Part shown: positions 1,234-18,981 of the stretch, piece by piece
Layout of the letters: every line of letters begins with the position of its first letter
How positions within the stretch are numbered: the first letter of the stretch is position 1
Source of the DNA: a virus
Lineage: Duplodnaviria; Heunggongvirae; Uroviricota; Caudoviricetes
Length of the DNA: 18,981 bases
Direction: 5' to 3' (one strand)
IMG/VR virus record: IMGVR_UViG_2558860274_000004
Span: 1 to 18,981 of that record
Made by a program: the position numbers and the translations under genes
Notes under the pieces: generated by a model
Databases searched by the model: none
Told to the model about the DNA's origin: nothing
The model's input: the letters and a program-made list of their open reading frames with translations, nothing else

Positions 1234-1312
1234 GTCATAGAACTTCCATTATTCTCCTGAAGATAATAATCGCCAAATAAACCAATACTCAGTTTTACAA
1301 TATAATAACTAA

Positions 1313-1346
1313 CCGCAGAACGTTATTTCATACAACGTTTCTGCGG
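1313..1346. terminator. inverted-repeat hairpin between convergent genes (candidate terminator)
   Basis: ccgcagaacgtt (1313-1324), 9-nt loop, aacgtttctgcgg (1334-1346): near-perfect 12-bp stem. On the minus strand it is followed by a T/A-rich stretch. Lies between the stop of the 1..1233 ORF and the stop of the Q-like ORF. Confidence 0.4.
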
Positions 1347-1361
1347 CATATCACAAAACGA

Positions 1362-1759
1362 TTACTCCATAACAGGGACAGCAGGCCACTCAATATCAGG
1401 TGCAGTTGATGTATCAACACGGTTCAGCAACACCCGATACTTCTTCCAGACTTCCAGCAACGAGGTTTCTTCCTCCGTTGCGATTTCCAGATCTGCAGCA
1501 TCCTGAAGTGGCGCGATATGCTCACTGGCTACCTGCATCAGGCTGTTTTTTGTTTCTTCCGCTTCAGGCGAGCCATGCATCCACAAATGATCATCGCGTC
1601 ATCGTCACAACATTGCGGGCGGGATTTTACTTTTGAAGGGATTAGTCCTTTAAATCCTGCAGCAATAGACGACCAGGTGACATCCTCGTGATTATTTGCC
1701 ACCCATGCCCCCCAACGTTCAAGAACCATTTGAATATCACGCATCAACTTTCTCCACAA
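1362..1759 (-). pseudogene. Q-family late antiterminator-like gene, split into two frames at a T6/A6 homopolymer
   Basis: ORF 1538..1759 (minus) encodes [24 protein letters not shown]...[16 protein letters not shown], which I recall as the N-terminus of small enterobacterial Q-like antiterminators. It stops just after a homopolymer (plus-strand tttttt at 1545-1550). ORF 1362..1586 continues in another frame. A 1-nt indel in the run would join them into about 130 aa. Confidence 0.5.
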
Positions 1760-1761
1760 AA

Positions 1762-2757
1762 TCAGGCCAGCACGCCAATTGCCAGCGCACGATCGATAAA
1801 ACGAAATATCAGCTCCAGCTGGGAGCCATACTTCTCTTCAAATGCCACGGTATCCGCATGCAGCTCGTCGTGATGCTTTCTGCACAAAGGCAACACAAAA
1901 AGGTCATGCGCTTTTGTTCCCATTCCACCCTGACCGTGACCTATCAGGTGGTGGGGATCATCAGCGGGCTTTCCACAACATGCACACGGCTGTGTCATAA
2001 CCCAGCGCGTGTACTTTTCATTAACCCAGCGGCGACGTTTTGGGCGTAACATAAAAGACTCCGGCGACTCCGGATCCACTTTCAGCGCCAGCACCTTTTT
2101 CGCCTTATCCTGGATGATGCTGGTGGCAGGAACCGAAGGCACAAGGTCACTTTCCCGGGTAACAGACGGCACAACAGGCTTCGGTAATCTCAGTGCCTTA
2201 CGGGCTGCACTTTCCGGTAAGGCATCCGCCAGATCATTACGAATCAGCCACCAGCACAGTTCCGGCATTGTCACAACGTGACTGTCATCAAAACCGAGAT
2301 CCCGACGCACAACAGACAACACCCAGCGGGCACAGTTATCCGTTGCCATTGATTCCAGCCGTTCCGTGAACTGATCGCGCAGCTGGTTATCGCAGTGCCA
2401 GCACAGACGGATTGCACCCGGAGCGTGTCGCATTGTGGTCATGTTCTCGCTGTGCCAGTCGGAATGAGGCCACTGGCAGCCTTTTTCACGAAGTAACCAG
2501 CTTTCAAGACATTCCACGCCACCAGCACGACGGATCACTGCCTCATCGCGGAACACGGCCCGAACGGCAGGATCATCCGCCAGCAGTTGTGATGCCGCCG
2601 GAACGGCACCACTGGCGAAAGATGAATAACGCTCCGGCTCAGGCTCCAGCAGGACACGCCCCTGCATAAACAGGGGCATCAGCTCTGAACCTGGCCTGAA
2701 CAATACGATCCCCATACGCGGGGCAATTTCAGGGGTCAGTAGTGCTCTCACGGTCAC
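1762..2757 (-). CDS. DUF968-like prophage protein with C-terminal Cys/His-rich (HNH-like) motif
   Basis: 331-aa ORF. C-terminus [43 protein letters not shown] shows a C-x2-C ... HH ... C-x2-HH pattern typical of DUF968/HNH-like proteins found just upstream of Q in lambdoid prophages. GTG start abutting the upstream gene. Confidence 0.65.
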
Positions 2758-2758
2758 C

Positions 2759-3304
2759 TCAATGAACGGTATCGAGCAGCTTTAACAGCTCAGGGAATCG
2801 GGATTCGAAGAAATGCGGCTGCGTCTCGCGCGGATTTGCGGGACTGGTGATGTTCTTACCGAACATGCAGCCTTTCGCTGTCAGCGACCAGAATTTTTTG
2901 ATGTTGTTAATCGCGGTACGGCTGTATCGTTCGCGCTGCTCGACGATCCCCAGCTTCACCATCTGGTGATATGCCTGATTAGCCGTCAGGCGGATAACCG
3001 GTCCCCACTCCACCAGCATTCTTTTCACCTGTCTGTCGTCTTCCCACACACCCGCGTGGGTCAGGGCGTCAAACAGCGCCTTGTTATAGTTGTCCAGATC
3101 GCGGATCCGGTTAACTGGCTTTGAAGTACGGGTCTTCGCGTTTTTCTGTGTACGTGCTGACGGACGGCGATAAGCGCAGGGAAAGCTCATCCCATTTTTC
3201 CCGCAGCTTCGACGGGCTGAGCACGTTACGGCACCAGAACGGATCGCGGCTGACGCGGCTGTACATCTCGCAGATTTGTTTGTGAGTACGACCATCCTGC
3301 ACAC
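2759..3304 (-). CDS. RusA-family Holliday-junction resolvase-like ORF (motif clear, N-terminal boundary uncertain)
   Basis: Contains RIRDLDNYNKALFDALTHAGVWEDDRQV, which aligns with the RusA catalytic-Asp core ([28 protein letters not shown] from memory). The ORF-track N-terminus (GTG start, Arg/Ser/Ala-rich) does not look like RusA and overlaps the 3' end of the upstream O-like ORF by about 190 nt in another frame. True start may be the internal ATG near 3190, or the gene is frameshifted. Confidence 0.5.
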   Translation of the reverse strand: MCRMVVLTNKSARCTAASAAIRSGAVTCSARRSCGKNGMSFPCAYRRPSARTQKNAKTRTSKPVNRIRDLDNYNKALFDALTHAGVWEDDRQVKRMLVEWGPVIRLTANQAYHQMVKLGIVEQRERYSRTAINNIKKFWSLTAKGCMFGKNITSPANPRETQPHFFESRFPELLKLLDTVH

Positions 3305-4022
3305 ACATCAGGCGAATTTCGTTTGCCCAGGCTGTCCAGTTCGGTTCTTTGGGACGAACCACCTCGCCGTCACATTCGGCGGCCTGCTCGTACAGGGCAA
3401 TGATTTTTTTCCAGAGCCACTGTGCGCAGGTCAAATCATCCTGCGTTCCCCACTGGCGCTTTTTAGGGCTGAATACAACCGCATCAGGATGGCGAGTTAA
3501 AAAATCCTTTTCAGCCGTCTGCGTGTCCGGTTGCGAAGCGTCCGGACGAGAAGGTTTTTTATCTGACGGATCATGTTTTGATTTTACTGACGGATCCCCG
3601 CCAGATTCTGACGGGTGAAAACCCGCTTTTTTGCCAGATTTCGACGCATCAAATTTTGACGGGTCAGATTTTGATGCGTCAGATTTTGATGCGTCAGATT
3701 TTGACGGGTCAGAATCTGACAGTTGAGAAAATGCCGCTGCCTGAAGCTTCGCAACGTTAAGCTGATAAACATTCGACGCATTGCGGTTACCCTGGCGACG
3801 CGCCTTACGCGTTAACCAGCCTTCTGCTTCCAGCCGTGCGATAGCCGTTCTGACGGTGCTCATCCCCGCGCCAATCTGGCGGGCAATGGTTTCAATTGAT
3901 GGCCAGCACACACCTTCGTCATTACTGAAATCAGCCAGGCGGGCCATAATTGCCACGCTGGATAACTTCATGCCTGACGCAGCGCAACCATCCCATACAT
4001 AGCCGGTTAATTTAGTGCTCAT
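3111..4022 (-). CDS. replication initiator protein (lambda O-like role) with HTH N-terminus and internal iteron-encoded repeat
   Basis: 303-aa ORF with GAGG Shine-Dalgarno 7 nt upstream of ATG at 4022. N-terminal winged-HTH-like segment (SIETIARQIGAGMSTVRTAIARLEAEGWL). Central SKSDASKSDASKSDPSKFDASK repeat is encoded by 15-bp direct DNA repeats, the arrangement of lambdoid O genes that carry ori inside the coding sequence. Confidence 0.7.
   Translation of the reverse strand: MSTKLTGYVWDGCAASGMKLSSVAIMARLADFSNDEGVCWPSIETIARQIGAGMSTVRTAIARLEAEGWLTRKARRQGNRNASNVYQLNVAKLQAAAFSQLSDSDPSKSDASKSDASKSDPSKFDASKSGKKAGFHPSESGGDPSVKSKHDPSDKKPSRPDASQPDTQTAEKDFLTRHPDAVVFSPKKRQWGTQDDLTCAQWLWKKIIALYEQAAECDGEVVRPKEPNWTAWANEIRLMCVQDGRTHKQICEMYSRVSRDPFWCRNVLSPSKLREKWDELSLRLSPSVSTYTEKREDPYFKAS
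3580..3725. repeat. iteron array (candidate prophage origin of replication) inside the initiator gene
   Basis: At least four tandem 15-bp units (gtcagattttgatgc, gtcagattttgatgc, gtcagattttgacgg, gtcagaatctgacag) at about 3656-3722, plus degenerate copies upstream (ctgacggatc at 3582-3600). Each unit has internal dyad symmetry (tcagattttga vs tcaaaatctga). Confidence 0.6.
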
Positions 4023-4031
4023 GACCGACCT

Positions 4032-4370
4032 CTATTTCCCTGAATTTACGACGAAACTGTTCGAGCGGACTGAAGCATTCATGCTCATAACCTTCGCGGA
4101 GGTAGATAACCCGTTGTGTTTCCGGCTCCCAACGAATGACTCTGACGGGCACTCCGTAGTGATCTTTGAACCAGCGGTTAACTTGTCGCAAAGGACTGTC
4201 TCCTTCTGCCGGTTGAAATCACCCACAGCCCACTCTGCAAAGCTGTGGGTTACAATTTCCCTATCACCTGGTACATTCACTGCATAGCAATATTCCACCT
4301 TCGCTTTTCCACCCGGTACAGGAAGCGCAATCAGTTGCGAGCGACGGTAGTGTGTTGTTAAACTGTTCAT
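4032..4370 (-). CDS. hypothetical protein (112 aa)
   Basis: ATG at 4370 overlaps the TGA stop of the upstream CII-like gene (ATGA overlap, translational coupling). Stop at 4032-4034 lies 10 nt before the initiator start. No recognisable motif. Confidence 0.45.
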
Positions 4371-4924
4371 GCGTTAGTTTCTCCACAACCAGAAGCAATC
4401 GACGCCACGACGCCCGGAGCTGCACACTCGCGGGCGTCATTACTTTCTGAAATGCAAAAAATTTTGTAGACAAGTGCTGCATGCTCCTGCAGCTTCGAAA
4501 TTGAGAGATACAGCTCGTCGTTAATTGCTGTCTTCTCATGCGGTTCCACTACGCCGTCTTCGATTGCTGAACGAATCTGTTTTGAATAACTGCCGATCTG
4601 TTCAATGACTTCCAGCAGACGCTGGTTAATATCGGCGTTGTCCACATCCTCGACGTCAGGAAGAGACACAAAGACGCCATTTGCAGACTGCGCCACAGCA
4701 TCAGCAATGAAGTGAGTGCCACCAGCACGCTGTAAAACCATTGCCCATCCCAGCGGGAAAATCTGATCGCCATCTGCACGAAGGCGGTTGAATAAAGCGT
4801 TTTCTGTTACATCGAGCCAGTCAGCCGCTTCAGCGTAACCACCCGGCAACGCCGCGATAGTTTTTCTGACAGCTTTCACGTACCACTCAGGCTGTTTTTC
4901 CACTTTCCAGTGATGATTACCCAC
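4367..4924 (-). CDS. CII-like phage regulatory protein (family assignment tentative)
   Basis: 185-aa ORF directly downstream of cro-like gene in the same operon. GTG start preceded by AGGAGG 6 nt upstream. Position and size fit CII-like prophage regulators; no catalytic motif seen. Confidence 0.5.
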
Positions 4925-5177
4925 GGCTTACCTCCTGTTCCTGTGGTTTAAACCCATTCTGGTTTTGGCTAGATTGAAAACGTGCCGGATAAAGAATCTG
5001 CATTTCGCTGATTTCACCCTTAAAAAAATTGGCCAGACGTTCTGCAAGATCGATAGATGGAATTTGTTCCAGTCTTTCAATACGACTCAGCGTCGCTGGA
5101 TTGACCTGAACGCCAGCAGCAACATGCTGCAAAGTAAATCCGTGCGCCTTACGCACATTCCGTAATGGTGATTGCAT
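4917..5177 (-). CDS. Cro/XRE-type HTH transcriptional regulator (cro-like)
   Basis: 86-aa ORF divergent from the cI-like gene. GGAGG Shine-Dalgarno 4-8 nt upstream of ATG at 5175-5177. Helix-turn-helix-like segment FTLQHVAAGVQVNPATLSRIE. Confidence 0.75.
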   Translation of the reverse strand: MQSPLRNVRKAHGFTLQHVAAGVQVNPATLSRIERLEQIPSIDLAERLANFFKGEISEMQILYPARFQSSQNQNGFKPQEQEVSRG

Positions 5178-5274
5178 ATGACCTCCACATATTGCGTGAT
5201 GAGCATATTATTTCACGCAAATATTTTGCGCAAGTTGATTTGCTTAACGCGCAATAAAGAAATGTAATAAACGC
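5178..5274. promoter_or_regulatory. immunity-region divergent promoters and operators between cro-like and cI-like genes
   Basis: 97-bp intergenic region with repeated TTGCG(T/C) / (A/G)CGCAA half-sites: ttgcgtga-N13-tcacgcaa (5192-5220), cgcaaa-tat-tttgcg (5215-5229), ttgcgcaa (5226-5233), acgcgcaa (5247-5254). Candidate -10 taatat for the leftward (cro) promoter on the minus strand at 5205-5210. Candidate ttgctt/tgtaat rightward promoter giving a near-leaderless cI transcript. Confidence 0.55.
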
Positions 5275-5967
5275 ATGAACATAGGAAACCGAGTCAGACA
5301 ACTTCGCCAGGCGAAGAACATGAAAATCGCCGATCTCGCTGAAGCAATAGGAGTGGATGCGGCGAATATCTCACGCCTGGAAACAGGTAAGCAGAAACAA
5401 TTCACTGAACAAGCCCTGAGTAATATTGCCAAGAGCTTAGGTGTTGATATTGCTGATCTCTTTACCTCAGACTTCAAAAGTAATACTGTATGTAAAAACA
5501 GTATTAGTGAGGATGTTGCGCAGGTGAAGGATGTATTCCGTATTGAAATGCTGGATGTCAGTGCCAGTGCGGGAAATGGCCTTATCCAGGGCGGTGATGT
5601 CATTGATGTGATTCATGCCATTGAATACAGAACTGATAATGCTGTATCGATGTTTGGCGGACGGCCAGCCAATCACATTAAAGTTATCAACGTTCGTGGG
5701 GACAGTATGTGTCCAGCCATTGAGCCAGGAGATCTCATCTTCGTTGATGTCAGTATCAATCAGTTTGATGGAGATGGTATCTATGTATTTGGTTTTGATG
5801 ATAAAATTTATGTCAAACGACTGCAAATGATACCTGACAAACTACTGGTGATTTCTGATAACCAGATTTACCGTGAATGGGGAATTACCAGCGAAAATGA
5901 ACACCGGTTTATGGTCTTTGGAAAGGTCTTAATCAGCCAGTCACAAACCCTTAAGCGACACAATTAA
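5275..5967 (+). CDS. cI-like repressor, LexA/S24 family (N-terminal XRE HTH plus C-terminal autocleaving peptidase domain)
   Basis: 230-aa ORF. HTH segment MKIADLAEAIGVDAANISRLETG. Ala-Gly candidate cleavage site in SASAGNG (about residues 99-100). Ser in VRGDSMCP and Lys in YVKRL spaced 37 residues apart as in the LexA Ser/Lys dyad. Confidence 0.9.
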   Translation: MNIGNRVRQLRQAKNMKIADLAEAIGVDAANISRLETGKQKQFTEQALSNIAKSLGVDIADLFTSDFKSNTVCKNSISEDVAQVKDVFRIEMLDVSASAGNGLIQGGDVIDVIHAIEYRTDNAVSMFGGRPANHIKVINVRGDSMCPAIEPGDLIFVDVSINQFDGDGIYVFGFDDKIYVKRLQMIPDKLLVISDNQIYREWGITSENEHRFMVFGKVLISQSQTLKRHN

Positions 5968-5987
5968 CCCTTACCTCCTCATCAATT

Positions 5988-6009
5988 AGCCACCCAAAGG
6001 TGGCTTTTC
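5988..6009 (+). terminator. intrinsic terminator downstream of cI-like gene
   Basis: agccacc (5988-5994), caaa loop, ggtggct (5999-6005), followed by tttcatt. Confidence 0.5.
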
Positions 6010-6485
6010 ATTACCCTTTAAATTGCATATCTCGCAACAAAAGCACTTGCATAATGCGCAACTTCATTTTATCTTTCTTTCCAGACAAACAAACAAGGTA
6101 CTAACAAAATTTGGTTGTAACACGGCGTATGGCACATGCGTCGTTAGCGGTCTGGGGACGTTAAAGGGGACAATCCACTCCTTGCTCGGGCAAACAAACC
6201 AGGTAGCCGGAATGTGCAAGTCAATGATGATGCTGATAAGACGCCTAACCAGCGTGGCGATCCGGTTTGACGCCTGGGAAGAGACCAGGGTGCAACGATG
6301 AGGGCATTTATAGAGCCGCGACAAAGTGTGGTGCCGTAACTGGCTAAGTGCTCTCAGCGTTGTGGTAATCCGCGAAATGGCGCGGCGGTAAGTATGGCGG
6401 GGTTACTCTTTCCCCGTTGAGGACACCGGATTGTCAGGTTGACCATACGCCTGAGTGACAACCCCACCACAACAGCCACTGCTTT

Positions 6486-6532
6486 GGCGGTACCAGTTTG
6501 TACACTTGCTTCCTGCTGGTACCGCTCTTTTT
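6486..6532 (+). terminator. strong hairpin plus T-tract inside the long leader upstream of the early-left genes
   Basis: ggcggtaccag (6486-6496), about 19-nt loop, ctggtaccgc (6516-6525), followed by tcttttt (6526-6532). Confidence 0.5.
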
Positions 6533-6669
6533 ACAAAACAGAGAAGAGCATCACCGGACGACGGGCTCATAACCCAATCCATCCGGGCGGCTGCCACCGC
6601 AGGTGTTCTTCTCTGTTTTGTGGAGAAACCAACCGACCTTGCAGGGTCGATATGATGAGGAGCAGCAAA

Positions 6670-7032
6670 ATGGCTAGCGAACGCAGTACTGATGTGCAGG
6701 CATTTATCGGGGAGCTGGACGGCGGCGTATTTGAAACCAAAATCGGCGCAGTTCTCAGTGAAGTCGCTTCCGGTGTGATGAACACGAAAACCAAAGGTAA
6801 GGTCTCACTCAACCTGGAAATCGAACCATTTGATGAGAACCGTGTGAAAATCAAACACAAACTCTCATATGTTCGCCCGACTAACCGCGGGAAAATTTCC
6901 GAAGAAGACACCACCGAAACGCCGATGTATGTCAATCGCGGTGGTCGCCTGACTATTCTGCAGGAAGACCAGGGACAATTACTGACTCTTGCCGGTGAAC
7001 CTGACGGAAAACTACGCGCAGCAGGTCATTAA
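6670..7032 (+). CDS. small early prophage protein (about 121 aa), hypothetical
   Basis: ORF track gives 6439..7032, but the plausible start is ATG at 6670 with GAGGAG about 8 nt upstream. The upstream extension overlaps the terminator hairpin and has no ribosome-binding site. Size resembles a YfdP-like protein (recollection only). Confidence 0.5.
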   Translation: MASERSTDVQAFIGELDGGVFETKIGAVLSEVASGVMNTKTKGKVSLNLEIEPFDENRVKIKHKLSYVRPTNRGKISEEDTTETPMYVNRGGRLTILQEDQGQLLTLAGEPDGKLRAAGH

Positions 7033-7097
7033 TATCGTTCTTAATTAACTGATTATTTATCTCATCACTGAATATCTTTATATAGTGAGGACTTATT

Positions 7098-7922
7098 ATG
7101 TCTCAGAACTTAGACGCAACCGCAATTAATCAAATCCATGCCCTTATTTCTGCTCAGGGTGTTAATGAAATTATCAGTAATATTGGTGCCGATGCTGTGG
7201 CATTGCCTGAGAATTTCCGCATTCATGATCTGGAAAAATTTAATTTAAATCGCTTCCGTTTCCGTGGTGCGCTTTCCACTGCCAGCATCGATGACTTTAC
7301 CCGTTATTCTAAAGATCTTGCAGATGAAGGCACCCGCTGCTTTATCGATGCTGATAATATGCGTGCCGTCAGTGTACTTAACCTGGGTACTATTGATGAA
7401 CCAGGTCACGCAGATAACACCGCCACTCTCAAACTGAAAAAGACAGCACCGTTCTCTGCCCTGTTGTCTGTTAACGGCGAGCGTAACTCCCAGAAGTCAC
7501 TGGCAGAATGGATTGAAGACTGGGCCGACTACCTTGTGGGCTTTGATGCTAATGGTGACGCTATTCAGGCAACAAAAGCGGCTGCGGCAGTCCGTAAAAT
7601 CACGATTGAAGCAAACCAGACCGCTGATTTTGAAGATAATGACTTCAGCGGCAAACGCTCCCTGATGGAGTCTGTCGAAGCGAAGACCAAAGACATTATG
7701 CCAGTGGCATTTGAATTTAAATGCGTTCCGTTTGAAGGTCTGAAAGAACGTCCGTTTAAATTACGCCTCAGCATTATCACTGGCGATCGTCCTGTACTGG
7801 TTCTGCGCATTATTCAGCTGGAGGCGGTGCAGGAAGAAATGGCTAACGAATTTCGTGATCTGCTTGTTGAGAAATTCAAGGACAGCAAAGTAGAAACCTT
7901 TATTGGTACTTTCACCGCCTGA
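7098..7922 (+). CDS. DUF2303-like prophage protein (YfdQ-like, 274 aa)
   Basis: ATG at 7098 with GAGGA 8 nt upstream. Length and gene order (followed by an HD-domain gene and DUF551 genes) match my recollection of the yfdPQRST block of E. coli prophages. Identity not verified. Confidence 0.6.
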
Positions 7923-8049
7923 TTTCATTACTGCAAATGCCCCTGCGGGGGCATTTATGGAAACGTAATTTACTCAATAATCGCCGGATGGTGAGGGATT
8001 CTTTTTACCAGAATTCAGCGCGGTGCAGCGCATATACGTGGAGAACAAA

Positions 8050-8586
8050 ATGTCATTTATCAAAACTTTTTCCGGGAAGCATTTTTATTATGACAGGATA
8101 AATAAAGACGACATCGATATTAACGATATCGCGGTTTCCCTTTCAAATATCTGTCGCTTTGCCGGTCATCTTTCGCACTTCTACAGCGTCGCCCAACATG
8201 CGGTTCTTTGCAGCCAGCTGGTGCCGCAGGAATTTGCTTTTGAAGCGTTAATGCATGATGCAACAGAAGCGTATTGCCAGGACATTCCCGCACCACTGAA
8301 ACGCCTTCTTCCTGACTATAAACGGATGGAAGAAAAAATAGACGCCGTAATCCGTGAGAAATACGGGTTACCCCCGGTTATGAGTACACCCGTGAAATAT
8401 GCCGATCTCATCATGCTGGCAACCGAACGCCGCGATCTCGGGCTTGATGATGGCTCTTTCTGGCCTGTACTGGAAGGCATCCCGGCAACAGAGATGTTCA
8501 ACGTGATTCCACTGGCACCGGGCCATGCCTACGGGATGTTTATGGAACGTTTTAACGATTTATCGGAGTTACGCAAATGCGCATGA
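8050..8586 (+). CDS. HD-domain phosphohydrolase-like protein (YfdR-like, 178 aa)
   Basis: Probable start at ATG 8050 (GGAGA 6 nt upstream); ORF track begins at 8023. Candidate HD-type metal-binding residues in ...SHFYSVAQHAV...MHDATEAY... Stop overlaps the next gene start. Confidence 0.7.
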   Translation: MSFIKTFSGKHFYYDRINKDDIDINDIAVSLSNICRFAGHLSHFYSVAQHAVLCSQLVPQEFAFEALMHDATEAYCQDIPAPLKRLLPDYKRMEEKIDAVIREKYGLPPVMSTPVKYADLIMLATERRDLGLDDGSFWPVLEGIPATEMFNVIPLAPGHAYGMFMERFNDLSELRKCA

Positions 8587-8939
8587 ATGTTTTCGAAATG
8601 GAAGGGTTTCTTCGCGGGAAATGTGTACCGCGAGATCTGAAAGTGAACGAAACAAATGCTGAGTACCTGGTACGTAAATTCGACGCGCTTGAAGCTAAAT
8701 GTGCGGCACTGGAAAACAAAATAATACCAGTGTCAACTGAACTGCCACCAGCAAATGAAAGTGTTCTGTTATTTGATGCTAATGGAGAAGGCTGGCTGAT
8801 TGGCTGGCGTTCTCTCTGGTACACCTGGGGACAAAAAGAAACCGGAGAATGGCAGTGGACATTTCAGGTCGGGGACCTTGAAAACTTCAATATCACTCAC
8901 TGGGCAGTAATGCCCAAAGCGCCGGAGGCTGGAGCATAA
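8577..8939 (+). CDS. DUF551-type small prophage protein (YfdS-like, 120 aa)
   Basis: Start overlaps the preceding stop (ATGCGCATGA). C-terminal ITHWAVMPKAPE resembles the THWMPLPxPP signature of DUF551. Confidence 0.6.
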   Translation: MRMNVFEMEGFLRGKCVPRDLKVNETNAEYLVRKFDALEAKCAALENKIIPVSTELPPANESVLLFDANGEGWLIGWRSLWYTWGQKETGEWQWTFQVGDLENFNITHWAVMPKAPEAGA

Positions 8940-9451
8940 TGACCACATTTACCAATAAAGAACTGATTAAAGAAATCAAAGAACGAATCAGCAGCCTAGA
9001 GGTTCGAGACGATATTGAGCGCCGTGCTTATGAAATTGCTCTGGCATCGCTGGAAGAGGAGCCGGTGGCATGGCTGCATTCAGACAATGGCTTAGGTATT
9101 CCGGCAATAACCAGGAGCAAAAACATTGCTGACAGTTGGTTATCAATGGGCTGGTATGTTCAGCCGCTATATATAGCCAAGCCAGTACTGGTGGTGCCAG
9201 ATGCTCGTCCGTCTTTAAATAATGGCATAGTCGGTTTTGATGAAGGCTGGAACGCCTGCCGCGCTACCATGCTTCATGGTGCCAAACCTGTAAGCCAGAC
9301 TTACAAGTTGAACAAGCTGTCGGGCAACTCTCCGGTAACTCAGGATGGTTGGATAAGCTGTAGTGAGCGAATGCCGAACGATAAACAGTATGTTTGGTGT
9401 TGGGGTAAGTCTTACGGCTGGACTGAGTGCGATACCTTCGAAGGGTATTAG
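8939..9451 (+). pseudogene. 5' portion (170 codons) of an Ead/DUF551-type gene interrupted by IS66-family insertion
   Basis: ORF ends at a TAG created at the insertion junction (ta from host plus g from the IS end). The reading frame resumes after the IS at 11992 and ends with VTHWMPLPEPPQEVK, the DUF551 signature. Confidence 0.7.
9443..9450. repeat. 8-bp target-site duplication (gggtatta), left copy, IS66-family element
   Basis: Identical to 11983-11990, immediately flanking the IS ends. Confidence 0.85.
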
Positions 9452-9535
9452 TAAGCGTAAACTGACCGCCGTATGTAGCCATCAGACGAGAATTGGTAAC
9501 TTAGACGCCCATCTGATATAGACGGACATCTAAGT

Positions 9536-9961
9536 ATGGAATTACAGGACTGGCGAAAAGAACCTCGTAAAAACTATTCGAATGAATTCAAACTTCGTAT
9601 GGTGGAACTGGCATCACAACCTGGAGCTTGTGTTGCACAGATTGCACGTGAAAATGGCGTCAATGATAATGTTATTTTCAAATGGCTCAGGCTCTGGCAG
9701 AACGAAGGGCGTGTTTCGCGGCGTCTTCCGGTAACGACCTCTTCTGACACTGGCGTTGAATTATTACCTGTAGAAATAACGCCGGATGAGCAGAAAGAAC
9801 CTGTGGCGGCCATTGCGCCGTCTTTATCCACTTCCACTCAGACCAGAGTCAGTGCCAGTTCCTGCAAGGTGGAATTCCGTCACGGCAACATGACGCTGGA
9901 AAATCCATCGCCAGAGCTGCTCACAGTGTTGATCCGTGAACTGACCGGGAGGGGAAGATGA
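9536..9961 (+). CDS. tnpA: IS66-family accessory protein TnpA (orf1)
   Basis: 141-aa ORF with HTH-like N-terminus (NYSNEFKLRMVELASQPGACVAQIARENGV), first gene in the IS, overlapping tnpB by 4 nt. Confidence 0.8.
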   Translation: MELQDWRKEPRKNYSNEFKLRMVELASQPGACVAQIARENGVNDNVIFKWLRLWQNEGRVSRRLPVTTSSDTGVELLPVEITPDEQKEPVAAIAPSLSTSTQTRVSASSCKVEFRHGNMTLENPSPELLTVLIRELTGRGR

Positions 9962-10308
9962 TCTCACTCCCATCAGGTACCCGTATCTGGCTCGTTGCCG
10001 GCGTTACCGATATGCGTAAATCCTTCAACGGACTGGGAGAACAGGTACAACATGTGCTGAATGATAATCCCTTCTCCGGTCACCTGTTTATCTTCCGTGG
10101 CCGACGGGGTGACACCGTCAAAATTCTTTGGGCTGATGCTGATGGTCTGTGCCTGTTCACCAAACGCCTGGAGGAAGGCCAGTTTATCTGGCCTGCGGTA
10201 CGTGACGGCAAGGTATCCATTACCCGCTCGCAACTGGCAATGCTCCTCGATAAGCTGGACTGGCGTCAGCCAAAAACATCCAGCCGTAACTCACTGACAA
10301 TGTTGTAA
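9958..10308 (+). CDS. tnpB: IS66-family TnpB (orf2)
   Basis: 116-aa ORF (LPSGTRIWLVAGVTDMRKSFNGL...) in the characteristic middle position of IS66 elements. Confidence 0.8.
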   Translation: MISLPSGTRIWLVAGVTDMRKSFNGLGEQVQHVLNDNPFSGHLFIFRGRRGDTVKILWADADGLCLFTKRLEEGQFIWPAVRDGKVSITRSQLAMLLDKLDWRQPKTSSRNSLTML

Positions 10309-10338
10309 AAAACTCCTGACCGCATTATAAAAACGGTC

Positions 10339-11952
10339 ATGAGTCAGAAATACCTCATTCGCATCGCAGAGCTGGAAAGGTTGCTCTCTGAGCAGGCTGA
10401 AGCCCTCCGTCAGAAAGACCAGCAACTGAGTCTGGTTGAAGAGACGGAAGCCTTCCTGCGCTCTGCACTGACACGTGCCGAAGAAAAGATCGAAGAAGAT
10501 GAACGGGAAATAGAACATCTGCGGGCTCAGATAGAAAAACTGCGCCGGATGCTGTTCGGTACCCGTTCTGAAAAACTGCGTCGTGAAGTTGAACTGGCTG
10601 AGGCTCTGCTGAAACAACGTGAACAGGACAGCGATCGTTACAGTGGGCGGGAAGACGATCCTCAGGTTCCCCGCCAGTTGCGACAGTCGCGCCATCGTCG
10701 TCCGTTACCGGCACACCTTCCCCGTGAAATACACCGCCTGGAGCCAGAAGAAAGCTGTTGCCCGGAGTGTGGCGGTGAGCTGGATTATCTGGGGGAAGTC
10801 AGCGCTGAACAGCTGGAACTGGTGAGCAGTGCCCTGAAAGTGATCCGCACAGAACGGGTAAAAAAAGCCTGTACAAAATGTGACTGTATTGTTGAAGCAC
10901 CGGCGCCGTCCCGCCCGATAGAGCGTGGTATCGCGGGCCCCGGATTACTTGCCCGCGTGTTAACGGGAAAATACTGCGAACATCTGCCACTGTATCGTCA
11001 GAGTGAAATCTTTGCCCGCCAGGGTGTCGAACTGAGCCGGGCCTTACTCTCCAACTGGGTTGACGCGTGCTGCCAGTTAATGACACCGGTGAATGATGCC
11101 CTGTACCGTTATGTAATGAACACCCGCAAGGTTCACACTGATGACACACCGGTAAAGGTACTGGCACCGGGTCAGAAAAAGGCGAAAACAGGGCGTATCT
11201 GGACGTATGTCCGGGATGATCGCAATGTGGGTTCGTCATCTCCTCCAGCGGTCTGGTTCGCGTACTCGCCGAACCGGCAGGGGAAACACCCGGAGCAACA
11301 CCTCCGCCCCTTCCGGGGTATCCTGCAGGCGGATGCGTTCACAGGTTACGACAGGTTGTTCAGTGCAGGACGTGAAGGTGGTGCACTGACAGAAGTTGCG
11401 TGCTGGGCCCATGCCCGGCGAAAAATCCACGATGTATACATCAGCAGCAAAAGTGCGACGGCAGAAGAAGCACTGAAGCGAATCAGTGAACTGTACGCCA
11501 TCGAGGATGAAATACGGGGATTACCGGAGTCAGAGCGTCTTGCCGTCAGGCAGCAGCGAAGCAAAGTGTTACTGACGTCGCTGCATGAATGGATGGTGGA
11601 GAAGAATGGTACGCTGTCGAAAAAATCCAGACTGGGCGAAGCGTTCAGCTATGTACTGAATCAGTGGGATGCCCTCTGTTATTACAGTGATGACGGTCTG
11701 GCGGAGGCGGATAATAATGCTGCGGAAAGAGCGCTTCGTGCAGTCTGTCTCGGAAAGAAAAACTTTATGTTCTTTGGCAGCGATCACGGCGGCGAGCGTG
11801 GAGCACTGTTGTACGGGCTGATCGGCACCTGCCGTCTGAACGGTATCGATCCGGAAGCGTATCTGCGCCATATCCTGAGCGTACTGCCGGAATGGCCTTC
11901 CAACCGAGTTGATGAACTCCTGCCATGGAACGTAGTACTCACCAATAAATAA
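10339..11952 (+). CDS. tnpC: IS66-family transposase TnpC (orf3)
   Basis: 537-aa ORF with N-terminal coiled-coil/leucine-zipper region, CxxC...CxxC zinc-finger-like motif (CCPECGGEL...CTKCDC) and a C-terminal catalytic region, as in IS66 transposases. Confidence 0.85.
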   Translation: MSQKYLIRIAELERLLSEQAEALRQKDQQLSLVEETEAFLRSALTRAEEKIEEDEREIEHLRAQIEKLRRMLFGTRSEKLRREVELAEALLKQREQDSDRYSGREDDPQVPRQLRQSRHRRPLPAHLPREIHRLEPEESCCPECGGELDYLGEVSAEQLELVSSALKVIRTERVKKACTKCDCIVEAPAPSRPIERGIAGPGLLARVLTGKYCEHLPLYRQSEIFARQGVELSRALLSNWVDACCQLMTPVNDALYRYVMNTRKVHTDDTPVKVLAPGQKKAKTGRIWTYVRDDRNVGSSSPPAVWFAYSPNRQGKHPEQHLRPFRGILQADAFTGYDRLFSAGREGGALTEVACWAHARRKIHDVYISSKSATAEEALKRISELYAIEDEIRGLPESERLAVRQQRSKVLLTSLHEWMVEKNGTLSKKSRLGEAFSYVLNQWDALCYYSDDGLAEADNNAAERALRAVCLGKKNFMFFGSDHGGERGALLYGLIGTCRLNGIDPEAYLRHILSVLPEWPSNRVDELLPWNVVLTNK

Positions 11953-11982
11953 GCGTCAATACGGTGCTCCGTTGACGCTTAC

Positions 11983-11990
11983 GGGTATTA
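11983..11990. repeat. 8-bp target-site duplication (gggtatta), right copy, IS66-family element
   Basis: Identical to 9443-9450. Confidence 0.85.
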
Positions 11991-11991
11991 C

Positions 11992-12099
11992 GATTGGTCG
12001 AGAAACAAATGGTGGGCAGTTACTGACGATGGGGAAGAACCGGCATCGAAAGTAACCCACTGGATGCCGCTACCGGAGCCACCGCAGGAGGTGAAGTAA
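11992..12099 (+). pseudogene. 3' portion of the IS66-interrupted DUF551-type gene
   Basis: In frame with 8939..9450 once the IS and one TSD copy are removed: ...EGY-Y-DWSRNKWWAVTDDGEEPASKVTHWMPLPEPPQEVK, stop TAA at 12097-12099. Confidence 0.7.
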
Positions 12100-12293
12100 T
12101 GAACAACTTAATGACAACTAAACAAGTCGCCGACTTCTGTGGCGTTTCAGTATCGACCGTTCTTCGCTGGAACAGCGTAAACAGGAGAACTGGCCAGAAA
12201 TACAGGCCTGACTTTCCAGATCCTGATATTAAATCCTGCCCAAATAAATGGGCATCACGCAAGATATACAGGTTTGCTGGAGTTATTGAGTGA
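12099..12293 (+). CDS. small HTH DNA-binding protein, AlpA/excisionase-like (64 aa)
   Basis: ATG overlaps the preceding stop (TAATG). TTKQVADFCGVSVSTVLRW resembles the HTH of AlpA/Xis-type prophage regulators. Assignment from motif only. Confidence 0.5.
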   Translation: MNNLMTTKQVADFCGVSVSTVLRWNSVNRRTGQKYRPDFPDPDIKSCPNKWASRKIYRFAGVIE

Positions 12294-12359
12294 TGGGTAT
12301 TAGCTCATATCAGAACTAATACCCATCAATGACACAGAGCCAACTACCCACCCTGTGTC
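12291..12359. terminator. two hairpins between convergent AlpA-like and SIR2 genes
   Basis: tgatgggtattag (12291-12303), 12-nt loop, ctaatacccatca (12316-12328): perfect 13-bp stem. Second dyad gacacag (12331-12337) / ctgtgtc (12353-12359). No clear U-tract, so possibly a recombination or protein-binding dyad rather than a terminator. Confidence 0.4.
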
Positions 12360-12495
12360 AGGGGCTAACTTTTAACACCATAATTCACCGCTAGATAAAA
12401 ACTGTATTGCATTGCACGAGCGGCGCAGCATTATCAGTTAGAGTGTCTTTACCTTGTTAGGCTCCACAGTTCGCACTGTCCAACGCCTGTCACTT

Positions 12496-15400
12496 TCACA
12501 CGCTGCGCCTTCGAGAATATTCATTTAATCGCTGATAACGAACATCTTGCTCCAGTTGTGGAGCAGCTTGAACAATTTGAAGCAAGCATTGCCCCAACTC
12601 TCGAGGCCCCCAGTGTTGTTCGGCAATCACGGCATTCAGCAGGGATAGAGCGTCCGCAGGATATCGGCTGCAAATATCTGATTCTAGCAAAAGGCGAACG
12701 TCGTAGCTAAGGTGTTCGAGCGGTTGCAGCCAGTCCTGCACCACTGCCAAAGCCGCCGGAAATTCACCTCGGGCAGCAATCACCATACGAGTCAACGATT
12801 CGGATATGCGTGGGGTGGCCAAGTTGCGGGACTTTGGCCAAACCTGTTGCCAAAATGGCTGGACACGATTTTTCCAATACTCCTCGCGCTGATCGCCCGC
12901 ACCTTCAAGTGCCTGGTATAACGCCTGCGCGGCTACCTCCAGACCTTCTTGTGGAAGAGCACTAATTGCCGTTCGGAACTCCTCCACGGTATATCCCTCG
13001 GTAGGGCCCAGAGCTGCATAAGTCAGGAAAATAGCGAATTGCTGCCGGTGCTCGCCAAGATCAGAATAGTGATTGGCGCTCTCCAAAAAATCTGACTTGA
13101 AAGCTATCAGCAACGGTTCATACAGGCGTGGCGACCAGAGGAAGCCTTCCCACACAGCTTTTGCTTCGACGGGATTACTCCAAGCAAACAAGGGCAATAG
13201 ATACTGTTCGGTCCAAGGTCGATCTACGCGAAAAAATGCGATCAGCCGCGACCCCAGCAACACCCGACCATGGCGGAATAGCTCTATCTGTACATTACAC
13301 AATTTGGTGAAAAGTGTTTTCAATTCAACAGGAAGCAAATCATTGTCATTCGGGTTCTGTTTGAACCATAGGGTGATCAGTGATTGCGTGACATGCCCAA
13401 TGGGATGATTGATCGCCGTAGAAACAGGATCATAGGTCTCAATTCCGTTTCGAATGGTGCTAGACTCTGGGCTTGTTTCTATCATCAGAACCCGACGACA
13501 AAGGGCCAGTAGAATCTCCTCGTGGCAGAGGATGGTCTTCGAAGCCTCCTCCATCCACCAAGTGACAGCGTGGGAAATCTCCTGAAGTACTGCGTCAGGC
13601 ATGTCAAGCACCAACGGTGCGGCGTACCGCCACGAACGCATAATCATCCCTGGTTCAGCCCAAGTCTGCAGAGCTTCACGCCACCGACCAACAGGCCACA
13701 CATCATCTTGTGATAGTTTACGTAACGCATACAGACTGTGAAAAAAGCGCGTACGGCAAACATCACTCCAAGTGTCCTCATAGAAAGGCAGTCTTTCTGG
13801 CATAGGCTTTGCGAGCCATTGCACTAATTCCTGCCACTTACGGGGCGCAATGTCGACATCTATACTCTCCTCGAAGCCTGGATCACCGGTTCCGCTCATC
13901 CAGTGAGAGAATTCATCACGCTCGTTGGTTGCCAGTTGCCATTTTGGGTATGCTGTGGATATTTCCGTCAAACGTGTAGCCGCAGACTCTCCCAAAACAA
14001 GGCCCGCTCCCCTGAGCTTCGCTAGACACAACCAGACGGAATGAGCCACCAAATAATGCCACCTGTCTGCTTCCAAATTATCCTCGTACATCTCGCGCGG
14101 AGGCCCTGCCAAGATAGCAGTTTCCAGACGCTCTTGTGCAATTCCTGTCAGATGTCGTCCCTGCAAAACAAACAGTCTGAATACCTCTCGCCGAGTATCC
14201 GTGGCCCACAACCACCATGAACCGTCCTCTAACAACCAATTAACCCACCGCTCAGGTGGTATGCAGTTGTCTTGGCTTGCGGCAAACAGTGCCAGACGTT
14301 TGAAGGTGGGATATGGCAACTCAAACCAATTCTGAGCAATGCGCGAGGCCTGATCGCTGTCTTTGGCTCGAACGGCTAACCATGAATCCCGAAGTAATTC
14401 AATCAGGCTCACCCAATCGCGGAACCCCCGGTTCTGCCAGTGCGGAGTGATGGACGGCAAATCCCAATGCGAGCGGTCGTGACGATCGTCGGACTCTCCC
14501 AACTCCCGCAACAAGTCCAGTGCATCACGCAACAACTGCTGAAAATCTTCCAACAGGTATGGCAAGGACGATTTCCATGACTCGTCAGCAAGGTCGAACA
14601 GGGTTGAACGTACGTAATCAGCAGTCAGCACCAGCTCCCAATCCACCAATTGCTTGATTCGCAAGGGTTCATCAGTGCTGCTCGAATCGTCTTCACTATA
14701 GCGAAACGGCCGCCTCAACATAACCTTGGGAGAAAGCAACTCGCGTAACTCCAAGCGCAATGTAGTCGTCAAGCCTTCATTCTTTAAGCGGTTTTGCCAA
14801 CGATACAAATCCAGGTTCTGCAATGGCGATTTCACACGACCACTAAGCAGAAGCCGCCATAAAGTAGACATAGGTGGACCAGGAATAGCCAGGGGGGAAT
14901 GCAAGAGAATTTCATCTAACTCAGAAGTCTTACGCTCCCGCATCAGTGCTGCTAAGCGATCTAGTTCGCTCTCAATCAGAAACATCCAACGGTCGTGTAT
15001 TTGTCCGCCGCGTTCAGCAATCCATATGATCAACCTAGGGTCGCCCAGATAACGAACTAGCCAACGGGCTATATGGGACATTACGTCATCCCATTTGCTA
15101 GCACTGACACATCCAGAAACCAGCGACATCTGCGGGGCCAGCTCATAGGGCGCAGGACGCTGAACCAGACTGAATCGGAGTTTCGGGTCAATTTCGACAT
15201 GCGGAGATACACAAAAGCGTGGCAGATCGCTGTATTTAAATCGTTCGTCCGAGAAAGCTTTCAATAACCAATCCAGCGGCGGTGCAGGATTGAGTTCCGC
15301 AAAGCGTTTTGCTGGTAAACCTGATTTATCTGACAAGGCCCACAACATCCGACCAACGAAATCGTCCTGACGAGTGCTGTCCTGCGGGCGGGCCAGAGCA

Positions 15401-16323
15401 TGTTTGACGACTATAGCCTCTTTGCCCTGTATACCATCTCGATAAGTATCTGCCCAAGCGTGCAACGTTTGATGCAGCACTGAATGATCAGTGGAGCCCG
15501 CCGGTACGGTGTAAAGGATAGGAGTGACCCCTTTGGCCTCCCACTCGATGGCTTTCCGGTGCTCCTGCCCCGGCTCACACTCCCCCAGTGCCCATACTTG
15601 TGGTGTGACTTCACCGAGCCTCCGATCTGCTGCAAGCGCATCCATCATGTAGCGCAGTACCGGGTCGTTGATGCTGTAGCCAACGAAGCAGACCACATAG
15701 TTACGAAATAACTCACTCACAAAGCGAGCTGCCCAACGCTCAGTGAGATAAGCCAAGCCAAAGTCACCGCTGGTAACAACCAGACGATTCAGGGCAGTAT
15801 CATCCGCCTTTTCCGGTAACAGCCCATGCAGGTATACAAGTCCATCCCAGCGGCTGTTTTTTGGAATTGGCAGCATCGGCGCTACATAGGCCTGAAAAGC
15901 CTGGCCTGTACGTTTAGCTGCCACATGAAAGAGACGGTCAAAGTTGGTAGTGACCAATCGAAGGGCACCCTCGCGGCTACGGGCTAAACGTAACAGCGCC
16001 GCCTGAGTATCAATAGCGCCCCTACGACGGAGCTTTGGCTTAAGGGCTTTTTCCAACGCGCGTCGGACGGCTATACGCTGCCCTGGTAAGCGCCGTTCCA
16101 GCAAATCTAATGTGCCGTCAAATTGCCCACGCTCGAAAACCTCACGCTCAATTTCTGAAAGTGTTGTTCCGTTCCTCTGGTAAATTAGTTCTACCAACCC
16201 TTTGAAACCAGGTAAACCAGCAGGGTAGGAAATGCCTGCTCCACAGAAGAACACAACGCGCCCTTCCTCGTGCGCCTGCAAAAGCTCATCAGGAATATCA
16301 GGGCCGTTGGTAATGAATTGCAT
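12496..16323 (-). CDS. large SIR2-domain protein (1275 aa): N-terminal SIR2-like NAD+-binding domain plus unassigned C-terminal helical region; candidate single-gene anti-phage defence
   Basis: AGGAGG Shine-Dalgarno 7-8 nt upstream of ATG at 16323. N-terminal motifs VVFFCGAGISYPAGLPGF (GAGIS NAD-binding loop), LVTTNFDRLFH (TQNID-like with catalytic Asn) and VYLHGLL (catalytic His-Gly). No Walker A (GxxxxGK[ST]) found by eye. C-terminal 1000 aa is Leu/Trp/Arg-rich and looks helical-repeat-like. Confidence 0.85.
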   Translation of the reverse strand: MQFITNGPDIPDELLQAHEEGRVVFFCGAGISYPAGLPGFKGLVELIYQRNGTTLSEIEREVFERGQFDGTLDLLERRLPGQRIAVRRALEKALKPKLRRRGAIDTQAALLRLARSREGALRLVTTNFDRLFHVAAKRTGQAFQAYVAPMLPIPKNSRWDGLVYLHGLLPEKADDTALNRLVVTSGDFGLAYLTERWAARFVSELFRNYVVCFVGYSINDPVLRYMMDALAADRRLGEVTPQVWALGECEPGQEHRKAIEWEAKGVTPILYTVPAGSTDHSVLHQTLHAWADTYRDGIQGKEAIVVKHALARPQDSTRQDDFVGRMLWALSDKSGLPAKRFAELNPAPPLDWLLKAFSDERFKYSDLPRFCVSPHVEIDPKLRFSLVQRPAPYELAPQMSLVSGCVSASKWDDVMSHIARWLVRYLGDPRLIIWIAERGGQIHDRWMFLIESELDRLAALMRERKTSELDEILLHSPLAIPGPPMSTLWRLLLSGRVKSPLQNLDLYRWQNRLKNEGLTTTLRLELRELLSPKVMLRRPFRYSEDDSSSTDEPLRIKQLVDWELVLTADYVRSTLFDLADESWKSSLPYLLEDFQQLLRDALDLLRELGESDDRHDRSHWDLPSITPHWQNRGFRDWVSLIELLRDSWLAVRAKDSDQASRIAQNWFELPYPTFKRLALFAASQDNCIPPERWVNWLLEDGSWWLWATDTRREVFRLFVLQGRHLTGIAQERLETAILAGPPREMYEDNLEADRWHYLVAHSVWLCLAKLRGAGLVLGESAATRLTEISTAYPKWQLATNERDEFSHWMSGTGDPGFEESIDVDIAPRKWQELVQWLAKPMPERLPFYEDTWSDVCRTRFFHSLYALRKLSQDDVWPVGRWREALQTWAEPGMIMRSWRYAAPLVLDMPDAVLQEISHAVTWWMEEASKTILCHEEILLALCRRVLMIETSPESSTIRNGIETYDPVSTAINHPIGHVTQSLITLWFKQNPNDNDLLPVELKTLFTKLCNVQIELFRHGRVLLGSRLIAFFRVDRPWTEQYLLPLFAWSNPVEAKAVWEGFLWSPRLYEPLLIAFKSDFLESANHYSDLGEHRQQFAIFLTYAALGPTEGYTVEEFRTAISALPQEGLEVAAQALYQALEGAGDQREEYWKNRVQPFWQQVWPKSRNLATPRISESLTRMVIAARGEFPAALAVVQDWLQPLEHLSYDVRLLLESDICSRYPADALSLLNAVIAEQHWGPRELGQCLLQIVQAAPQLEQDVRYQRLNEYSRRRSV

Positions 16324-16505
16324 TCCTTTTCCTCCTATCCAATGTGCACGTTCATTCGAGTAAATGAAGGCAAGGGGTTACATCTTATTATACCGACCGT
16401 GCAAATCCGGCTTCCTAGCAAGCTACTTTACTTGCCAACTCATAATGTCCGAACTCCGAACAAAGCGGACTGCTAGATTTGATTGCGTTCTAGCTACGCA
16501 AAATA

Positions 16506-16608
16506 TCATTTCGAGCCTGAACGAGTACAAGTAACAATCGATTCAACTCTCTCCCACCATGCCTGGTAGGCTTTACGCTGTTCTTCTAGATAATCACTCT
16601 TGTCATAA
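16506..16608 (-). pseudogene. int: displaced 3' end of the integrase gene (encodes the C-terminal 34 residues)
   Basis: Removing the IS3-family element and one copy of its TAA duplication restores the integrase frame: ...LPGVWQVY-DKSDYLEEQRKAYQAWWERVESIVTCTRSGSK, stop TGA at 16506-16508. This is a typical P4-type integrase C-terminal tail. Confidence 0.75.
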
Positions 16609-16616
16609 TGTAGTGG

Positions 16617-17785
<1,169 letters not shown>

Positions 17786-17841
17786 TGGAGCACCTGTGTT
17801 GTTCTGAGGTGAGCATATCACCTCTGTTCAGGTGGCCAAAT

Positions 17842-18981
17842 TCAGTGTGCCACTACATAAACTTGCCATACACCTGGCAGTTTATGACCGAGCATTATTT
17901 CAGCAATATGAGGCGCAGTAAGATCAGAAAAGTTTGTTCGTGCTGTTCGTCTCAAATCATGAAGAGACCAATGAGGAAATTGATACCCCAAACGCCGCCA
18001 TGCGTACTGCATTAAATTGTAAGGCAGCGACTGCAATGATGTCCGACCAACTGGTTCCCTGCTTCCTTCCTTAGTAAAAAGCATATCGGAACCGTTGTTC
18101 ATAGAGATAACGTATTTTATAAGCTCTTCAACCGGTTCAATAATGGGCCGCTTTAGCGGTTCGCCTGTTATATCCCCTGTCTTATGTCGTTCTGGTGGTA
18201 CAGTCCATATTTTATTAATGAAATCAAAATCGTCCACCTTGGCAGTAATTAGCTCTGAACTACGGCAACCAAAATGCAGCAATAGTTTAATGAAGGCCCG
18301 GTATTTAGGAACCATTCGAGAACCATCGATCGCAGCATAAAGGATTTTAATTTCATCATGTGTCAGAAACCGTTTCTTCTGACCTTTACGGATATCCATA
18401 TCTTTACCCGTGATATCCGACAGCGGGCGAGTTTCAATGAGCTTTCTCTTATACGCCCAGACATGGGCCTGCTTTGCGTTAATTAGCAATCGGTCTGCTA
18501 TTGCTGGAGTCTTAGTGCTAAGAGGCTCCAGGACTTCTAACCAATCATGCAATGTAGCTGCATCGTGAGGGATATTCCCGATTTTAGAGAACAGGTGCAG
18601 CTCAAACGAGCGGAGTATCTGTTCAGAACCTTTTTTATTTTTTACACAATATGCTTCATACCAAGCACGGATCACAGATTCTACCGTCATGGCTTCAGTA
18701 GCTTTACGTTTTTCTGCCAGCTTGACCAATCGTGGATTGCGGTTTGACTCGAGTTCACCACGAAGACGGATAACTTCTTCTCTGGCCTCTTTTAGTCCAG
18801 TTGCCGGGTAAGTTCCGATATCAAGACGCTCACCTTTCCCCGCCCACTGATAACGATATTGGAACACTACGCGACCTTTCGGTGATACTCTAACAGACAG
18901 ACCATCACGATCGGATTTAACCAAAACCTTATCACGTTCCTTTCCAACGACTGAACGCAACCACGCATCAGACAGCGCCAT
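17842..18981 (-). CDS. int: tyrosine integrase, P4-like; C-terminal tail replaced by IS-derived codons after insertion
   Basis: ATG at the window edge (18979-18981). N-terminus MALSDAWLRSVVGKERDKVLVKSDRDGLSVRVSPKGRVVFQYRYQWAGKGERL is arm-binding-like. Catalytic region ...HDLRRTARTNF...LGHKLPGVWQVY. After the Tyr codon the frame runs into the IS end (VVAH-stop at 17842-17844). Native continuation lies at 16506-16608. Confidence 0.85.
   Translation of the reverse strand: MALSDAWLRSVVGKERDKVLVKSDRDGLSVRVSPKGRVVFQYRYQWAGKGERLDIGTYPATGLKEAREEVIRLRGELESNRNPRLVKLAEKRKATEAMTVESVIRAWYEAYCVKNKKGSEQILRSFELHLFSKIGNIPHDAATLHDWLEVLEPLSTKTPAIADRLLINAKQAHVWAYKRKLIETRPLSDITGKDMDIRKGQKKRFLTHDEIKILYAAIDGSRMVPKYRAFIKLLLHFGCRSSELITAKVDDFDFINKIWTVPPERHKTGDITGEPLKRPIIEPVEELIKYVISMNNGSDMLFTKEGSREPVGRTSLQSLPYNLMQYAWRRLGYQFPHWSLHDLRRTARTNFSDLTAPHIAEIMLGHKLPGVWQVYVVAH

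Follow-up and report, generated by a model that had tools for sequence, protein, structure and literature searches.

The 18,981-bp stretch of viral DNA analyzed here (positions 1 to 18,981 of the IMG/VR virus record IMGVR_UViG_2558860274_000004, class Caudoviricetes; hereafter, the window) carries an open reading frame (ORF) of 1275 codons plus a stop codon on the minus strand at 12496–16323, as delineated from the ORF list and its translation. This gene is almost certainly dsr1, encoding defense-associated sirtuin 1 (Dsr1), an antiphage protein that acts alone and is carried as prophage cargo. A sequence-only reading of the same DNA had proposed a single-gene SIR2 defense protein of the DSR type, possibly with a new C-terminal sensor; the first proposal is borne out by full-length matches to Dsr1 models, by invariant Asn and His residues and by the lack of a partner gene, and the second is not. 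The assignment itself is not new: the gene already has a name, NCBIfam and PADLOC models, a RefSeq annotation and a record of experimental study.

Profile searches place the whole protein in the Dsr1 family. The NCBIfam equivalog model NF041818 (“anti-phage defense-associated sirtuin Dsr1”) matched with 2059.4 bits, above its cut-off of 1400, aligning protein residues 1–1271 to model positions 1–1263 of 1263. PADLOC, which the sequence-only reading had suggested running, returned the Dsr1 model PDLC02183 with 2735 bits and coverage of residues 1–1275 of 1275, along with a second Dsr1 model at 648 bits. At the nucleotide level, the coding sequence shows 100% identity to a gene of E. coli 19451123 (NZ_CP191548.1) that is annotated as dsr1 (WP_023993854.1). 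The exact amino-acid sequence is present on 170 contigs, and its NCBI name for Enterobacteriaceae is Dsr1.

The gene is uncommon but widely dispersed. Among 5426 complete E. coli genomes, 76 contained a match and 72 (~1.3%) had the gene in full length; identity was at least 99% in 67 of the 76, and every copy was chromosomal. Neither the window nor any of four E. coli loci showed a conserved partner gene, the integrase gene lying on one side of dsr1 and the excisionase gene or other prophage early genes on the other; at three of these loci, the Dsr1 protein has a different WP accession. Compared with the E. coli type of Dsr1, the window protein, which is exactly RefSeq WP_023993854.1, is alike in length, in its full-length hidden Markov model match, in the SIR2_2 Asn and His residues, in a helical sensor free of an NTPase, in its single-gene layout and in its prophage position between int and xis. 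It differs from other E. coli copies only in its surroundings, with an insertion sequence (IS) of the IS3 family 285 bp upstream and ISEc23 ~510 bp downstream. A separate observation concerns phages: in the phage collection, dsr1 was found in one record, the 92.9-kb Stx2c-converting phage Stx2c_JNE082796 (LC727881.1), where it is unannotated and lies at 2049–5873, encoding a protein of 99.9% amino-acid identity.

The N-terminal part of the protein is a SIR2-like NADase domain, to which we assign residues 1–296 (15436–16323, minus strand) on the basis of Pfam and PDB profile searches, residue 296 being our own chosen and approximate boundary. The profile search of the N-terminus that had been proposed as a check yielded a Pfam SIR2_2 match at residues 123–269 (E = 9.3e-23), and Pfam recognized no second domain in the 1275-aa protein. 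The three SIR2 motifs occur in the order that had been read from the translation. The GAGIS NAD-binding loop occupies residues 28–32 (16228–16242), TTNFD residues 125–129, with the predicted catalytic Asn127 encoded at 15943–15945, and HGLL residues 166–169, with the predicted catalytic His166 encoded at 15826–15828, all on the minus strand.

Conservation follows these motifs closely. In 27 homologs of 70–84% identity, drawn from Rahnella, Pectobacterium, Enterobacter, Vibrio, Thauera, Ferrovum and others, G28-A29-G30, N127, D129 and H166 were invariant. In 32 more distant representatives (37–56% identity), invariance was seen at G28, G30, T125, T126, N127, D129, H166 and G167, and SIR2_2 was present in all 32. 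In a phmmer alignment to KomC, a SIR2 NADase of known structure, counting the columns by hand paired Asn127 with KomC Asn107 and His166 with KomC His146, the latter being the residue changed in the PDB entry 9xvc, “KomC(H146N)”. A profile built from 33 diverse Dsr1 proteins and searched against PDB sequences matched KomC (E = 1.2e-10), ThsA (4.4e-4) and DSR2 (0.002), and all of its matches were SIR2 domains falling within profile positions 12–226. KomC and ThsA (PDB 8zsf, 6lhx) are therefore the closest solved SIR2 domains by sequence, with the catalytic Asn and His aligned; unlike Dsr1, they are short, come from multi-gene systems and lack the ~980-residue sensor. Thoeris was considered as a separate candidate and set aside: ThsA models matched the SIR2 part only, with 20.7 bits, and no TIR gene lies nearby in the window.

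The C-terminal ~1000 residues (297–1275; 12499–15435, minus strand) constitute the Dsr1 sensor and not a new one, because Dsr1 models span all 1275 residues and the identical RefSeq protein is already named Dsr1. The region carries no Pfam domain, and an AlphaFold2 (AF2) model of it consists of nearly all helices at low confidence (mean pLDDT 65.5, pTM 0.40); the input alignment comprised 27 homologs at 75–82% identity, a diversity too shallow for this purpose. Foldseek comparison of the model with the PDB returned only generic alpha-solenoids of the HEAT, tetratricopeptide repeat (TPR) and karyopherin kinds, with template modeling (TM) scores of 0.05–0.24. The helical character expected in the sequence-only reading was thus recovered; with this low-confidence model, Foldseek matched neither DSR2 nor Avs7 in the PDB. 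The 33-protein profile likewise found no match for the sensor among PDB sequences, and because it matched SIR2 domains alone, the PDB copy searched contains no solved Dsr1 and no sensor structure detectably related to it.

Searching exhaustively with residues 297–1275 recovered 2781 clusters (50% identity) at E ≤ 0.001, including 867 at E ≤ 1e-30. Among the 150 matches listed, the alignment starts near residue 290–300 of ~1250 aa in most of the full-length proteins, the remaining short proteins are probably fragments, and only Dsr1-like architectures were seen, with no Avs7. Over the full 1275 residues, Dsr1 is 75–84% identical in Enterobacterales, Vibrio, Thauera, Ferrovum and Nitrogeniibacter. 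Such conservation across distant genera is unusually high for an immune sensor, and suggests either that the gene has recently spread widely by horizontal transfer or that the sensor is strongly constrained.

Published work on related proteins allows a mechanism to be proposed. The defense phenotype, the capsid trigger and the dependence on NADase activity described below were published for E. coli proteins that are closely related or identical, not for this copy, the experimentally tested alleles being EcDsr1 (WP_029488749.1) and ECOR17 Dsr1. When ECOR17 dsr1 was introduced into MG1655 with its own 300 bp of upstream sequence, it protected against a T4 clone lacking nrdC.5, and supplying nrdC.5 restored T4 infection, which defined nrdC.5 as a counter-defense gene (PMC9391042). 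A 2026 preprint reports that EcDsr1 and the STAND family protein Avs7 have homologous sensors, that the ZL19 major capsid protein, alone among 73 genes screened, activated cell death mediated by EcDsr1, and that disruption of the NADase domain abolished both toxicity and defense (PMC12803255 / 10.64898/2026.01.04.697583). In B. subtilis, a cloned DSR1 gave defense against phage phi29 with a transient drop in nicotinamide adenine dinucleotide (NAD+) and without collapse of the culture (10.1101/2021.12.14.472415), and the phage NAD+-reconstitution pathway NARP1 overcomes DSR1 (10.1101/2024.02.11.579819).

In the model that we favor, the Dsr1 enzyme would be inactive in an uninfected cell, the ~980-residue helical C-terminal region serving as the sensor and the ~300-residue N-terminal SIR2-like domain as the effector. 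Binding of newly made phage major capsid protein by the sensor would activate the SIR2 domain, presumably by a route such as oligomerization, and the activated domain would then hydrolyze NAD+ to ADP-ribose and nicotinamide by means of Asn127 and His166. Loss of NAD+ would starve phage replication and cause it to stall. We infer that direct depletion of NAD+ is also valid for the E. coli type of Dsr1.

The high conservation of the sensor could have a further explanation, which we offer as a speculative and rather doubtful one: Dsr1 might guard a complex of host and phage proteins, its sensor being constrained by a conserved host protein together with the phage capsid protein. SeAvs7 is reported to bind EF-Tu together with the capsid protein (PMC12803255 / 10.64898/2026.01.04.697583). 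According to the same preprint, Avs7 and Dsr1 are homologous in their bilobed TPR sensors and share the class of trigger, the major capsid protein; the link between the two is drawn here from that literature alone. Avs7 combines a STAND NTPase with other effectors, for example a Cap4 nuclease, whereas Dsr1 lacks an NTPase and uses SIR2 as the effector.

No observation conflicts with the identification of the gene as Dsr1, although several points qualify the account given here. The PADLOC Dsr1 model PDLC04166 matches only the N-terminal ~210 residues, and therefore the name Dsr1 spans subgroups with divergent sensors. The AF2 model of the sensor, with the pLDDT and pTM given above, is too poor to confirm the reported bilobed TPR architecture. 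The NAD+ measurements considered here were made on the DSR1 expressed in B. subtilis, and the allele of the preprint is WP_029488749.1, as compared to WP_023993854.1 here. Finally, the IS3-family element located 285 bp upstream of the gene might alter its expression, and a simple sigma-70 consensus scan of these 285 bp, which reach from the insertion to the ATG, found no promoter-like site. A promoter and terminator scan of 12000–16700 gave no more sites than shuffled sequence did.

The last of these points underlie the alternative that survives best, namely that the Dsr1 homolog is silent or inactive, a relic in a decaying prophage that the upstream IS3-family insertion has cut off from normal transcription. 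The prophage is indeed degraded, with its integrase truncated by an IS, a DUF551 gene split by ISEc23 and segments of an uninterrupted E. coli locus (L001) missing. Yet all 3828 nt of the dsr1 ORF are intact and match the NZ_CP191548.1 copy exactly, and the native upstream sequence that remains, a presumed promoter region bounded by the insertion (16324–16608, minus strand), is 100% identical to that of uninterrupted loci, including L001. The ribosome-binding site is also intact: as had been noted from the sequence, it is strong, with a Shine–Dalgarno AGGAGG (16331–16336, minus strand) located 7 nt before the ATG. Moreover, the 285 bp retained are close in length to the 300-bp native upstream fragment from which ECOR17 dsr1 could be expressed (PMC9391042). 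The gene is intact, with its catalytic residues and its upstream region unaltered; we infer that this dsr1 copy is expressed and active, and regard a silent relic as improbable.

Far less credible still is the idea that the gene encodes a DSR2-type protein that senses tail tube protein, or a SIR2-STAND (Avs5) protein with an NTPase module for oligomerization. The layout of an N-terminal SIR2 domain followed by a long helical C-terminus is shared with these proteins, and the 33-protein profile did match solved DSR2 chains weakly, at the E value given above. The resemblance to DSR2 of B. subtilis 29R (8k98, 8wyb) is one of design: each combines, in one polypeptide, a SIR2 NADase at the N-terminus with a long alpha-helical sensor of phage structural proteins, and each is linked to NAD+ depletion. 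Sequence likeness, however, is limited to the SIR2 core, at profile positions 17–143. The two also differ in size, DSR2 having ~1005 aa, and in trigger, which is the tail tube protein for DSR2 and reportedly the major capsid protein for EcDsr1. In PADLOC, Dsr1 models span the full length, and even at E ≤ 1 there was no match to a Dsr2 or Avs model. A motif scan of the whole 1275-aa protein found neither a Walker A motif ([GA]xxxxGK[ST]) nor any GK[ST], and the earlier exclusion of a SIR2-STAND fusion stands; both DSR2 and Avs5 were rejected as candidates. A housekeeping NAD-dependent protein deacylase of the CobB/sirtuin type with a long extension has next to no probability: sirtuin-deacylase models matched faintly at residues 19–51 around the GAGIS loop (E = 0.17–0.18), and the 33-protein profile weakly matched SIRT2, SIRT3 and Hst2 chains (E = 0.006–0.05), but the deacylase models scored 11 bits against cut-offs of 221–243, a motif check found no CxxC zinc ribbon in the protein, the domain is SIR2_2 and not the canonical SIR2 family, and the gene is prophage cargo confined to ~1.3% of complete E. 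coli genomes.

In this decayed lambdoid prophage, dsr1 is carried as cargo, with the integrase gene on one side and the excisionase gene on the other. Its placement in a cargo hotspot beside the integrase, as the sequence-only reading had it, agrees with the four loci in which dsr1 lies between int and prophage genes. Two details of that reading required correction. It had put dsr1 directly downstream of the integrase, which is the ancestral state and not that of the window, because uninterrupted relatives have a 182-bp gap between int and dsr1, counted from the integrase stop codon to the start of dsr1; in these relatives, the integrated element adjoins yjjG. In the window, a 1249-bp IS3-family element intervenes (16609–17857, minus strand), delimited by blastn against L001 and by its TG...CA ends and TAA target duplication. 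The excisionase-like neighbor was correctly recognized (12099–12293; phrog_1553, E = 7.7e-36, with a weak HTH_17 match below the cut-off); it had been placed on the same strand as dsr1, but actually lies on the plus strand, convergent with dsr1. As an aside, the identical stretch of NZ_CP191548.1 has no annotated feature at the position of this excisionase gene.

The IS3-family element contains orfA (17483–17821) and orfB (16617–17456), both on the minus strand, and Pfam HTH_Tnp_1 and rve were found in its ORFs; the same element is annotated elsewhere as “IS3 family transposase”, and its OrfA may resemble that of IS911. It sits inside the 3′ end of the tyrosine integrase gene (17842–18981, minus strand; Pfam Phage_integrase, Arm-DNA-bind_3 and Phage_int_M), which retains native residues 1–375 of 407 followed by four foreign ones. 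The 32 residues lost begin just past the Tyr of the GHKLPGVWQVY motif, which, by analogy with P4-type integrases, is probably the catalytic Tyr. The prophage is probably immobilized. On the other side of dsr1, just beyond the excisionase gene, a complete ISEc23 of the IS66 family (tnpA, tnpB and tnpC; 9451–11982, plus strand) splits the DUF551 gene, as revealed by comparison with L001, and is flanked by the 8-bp duplication GGGTATTA.

The rest of the window corresponds to the early region of a lambdoid prophage, encoding a cI-like repressor, a CII-like protein, YfdQ and YfdR homologs, RusA and a DUF968 protein. A helix-turn-helix-containing protein encoded at 3111–4022 (minus strand) contains a series of short repeats rich in serine and lysine (SDPSKSDASKSDASKSDPSKFDASKS). 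As compared to the prophage of E. coli 19451123, the interval from this gene to the DUF968 gene lacks segments that include the methyltransferase, LexA-like and KilA-N genes; what remains at 2759–3304 is a hybrid RusA ORF. At the edge of the window, a 410-aa ORF (1–1233, plus strand) has a GC content of 31.6% within a region of ~50%. It had no Pfam and no PADLOC match, and aligned over its full length with phrog_19262, a family of unknown function; in ~121 complete E. coli genomes it is annotated as “hypothetical” and lies beside a tail-fiber-assembly gene. Because this is a typical moron position, the ORF is possibly an uncharacterized defense or exclusion gene.

Overall, the discovery value of these results is small, as the gene was already named and studied, and the check shows that the motif-based reasoning of the sequence-only reading was sound. 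For the biology of these prophages, the locus provides a clean example of a defense gene carried as cargo between int and xis and fixed in place by IS insertions.

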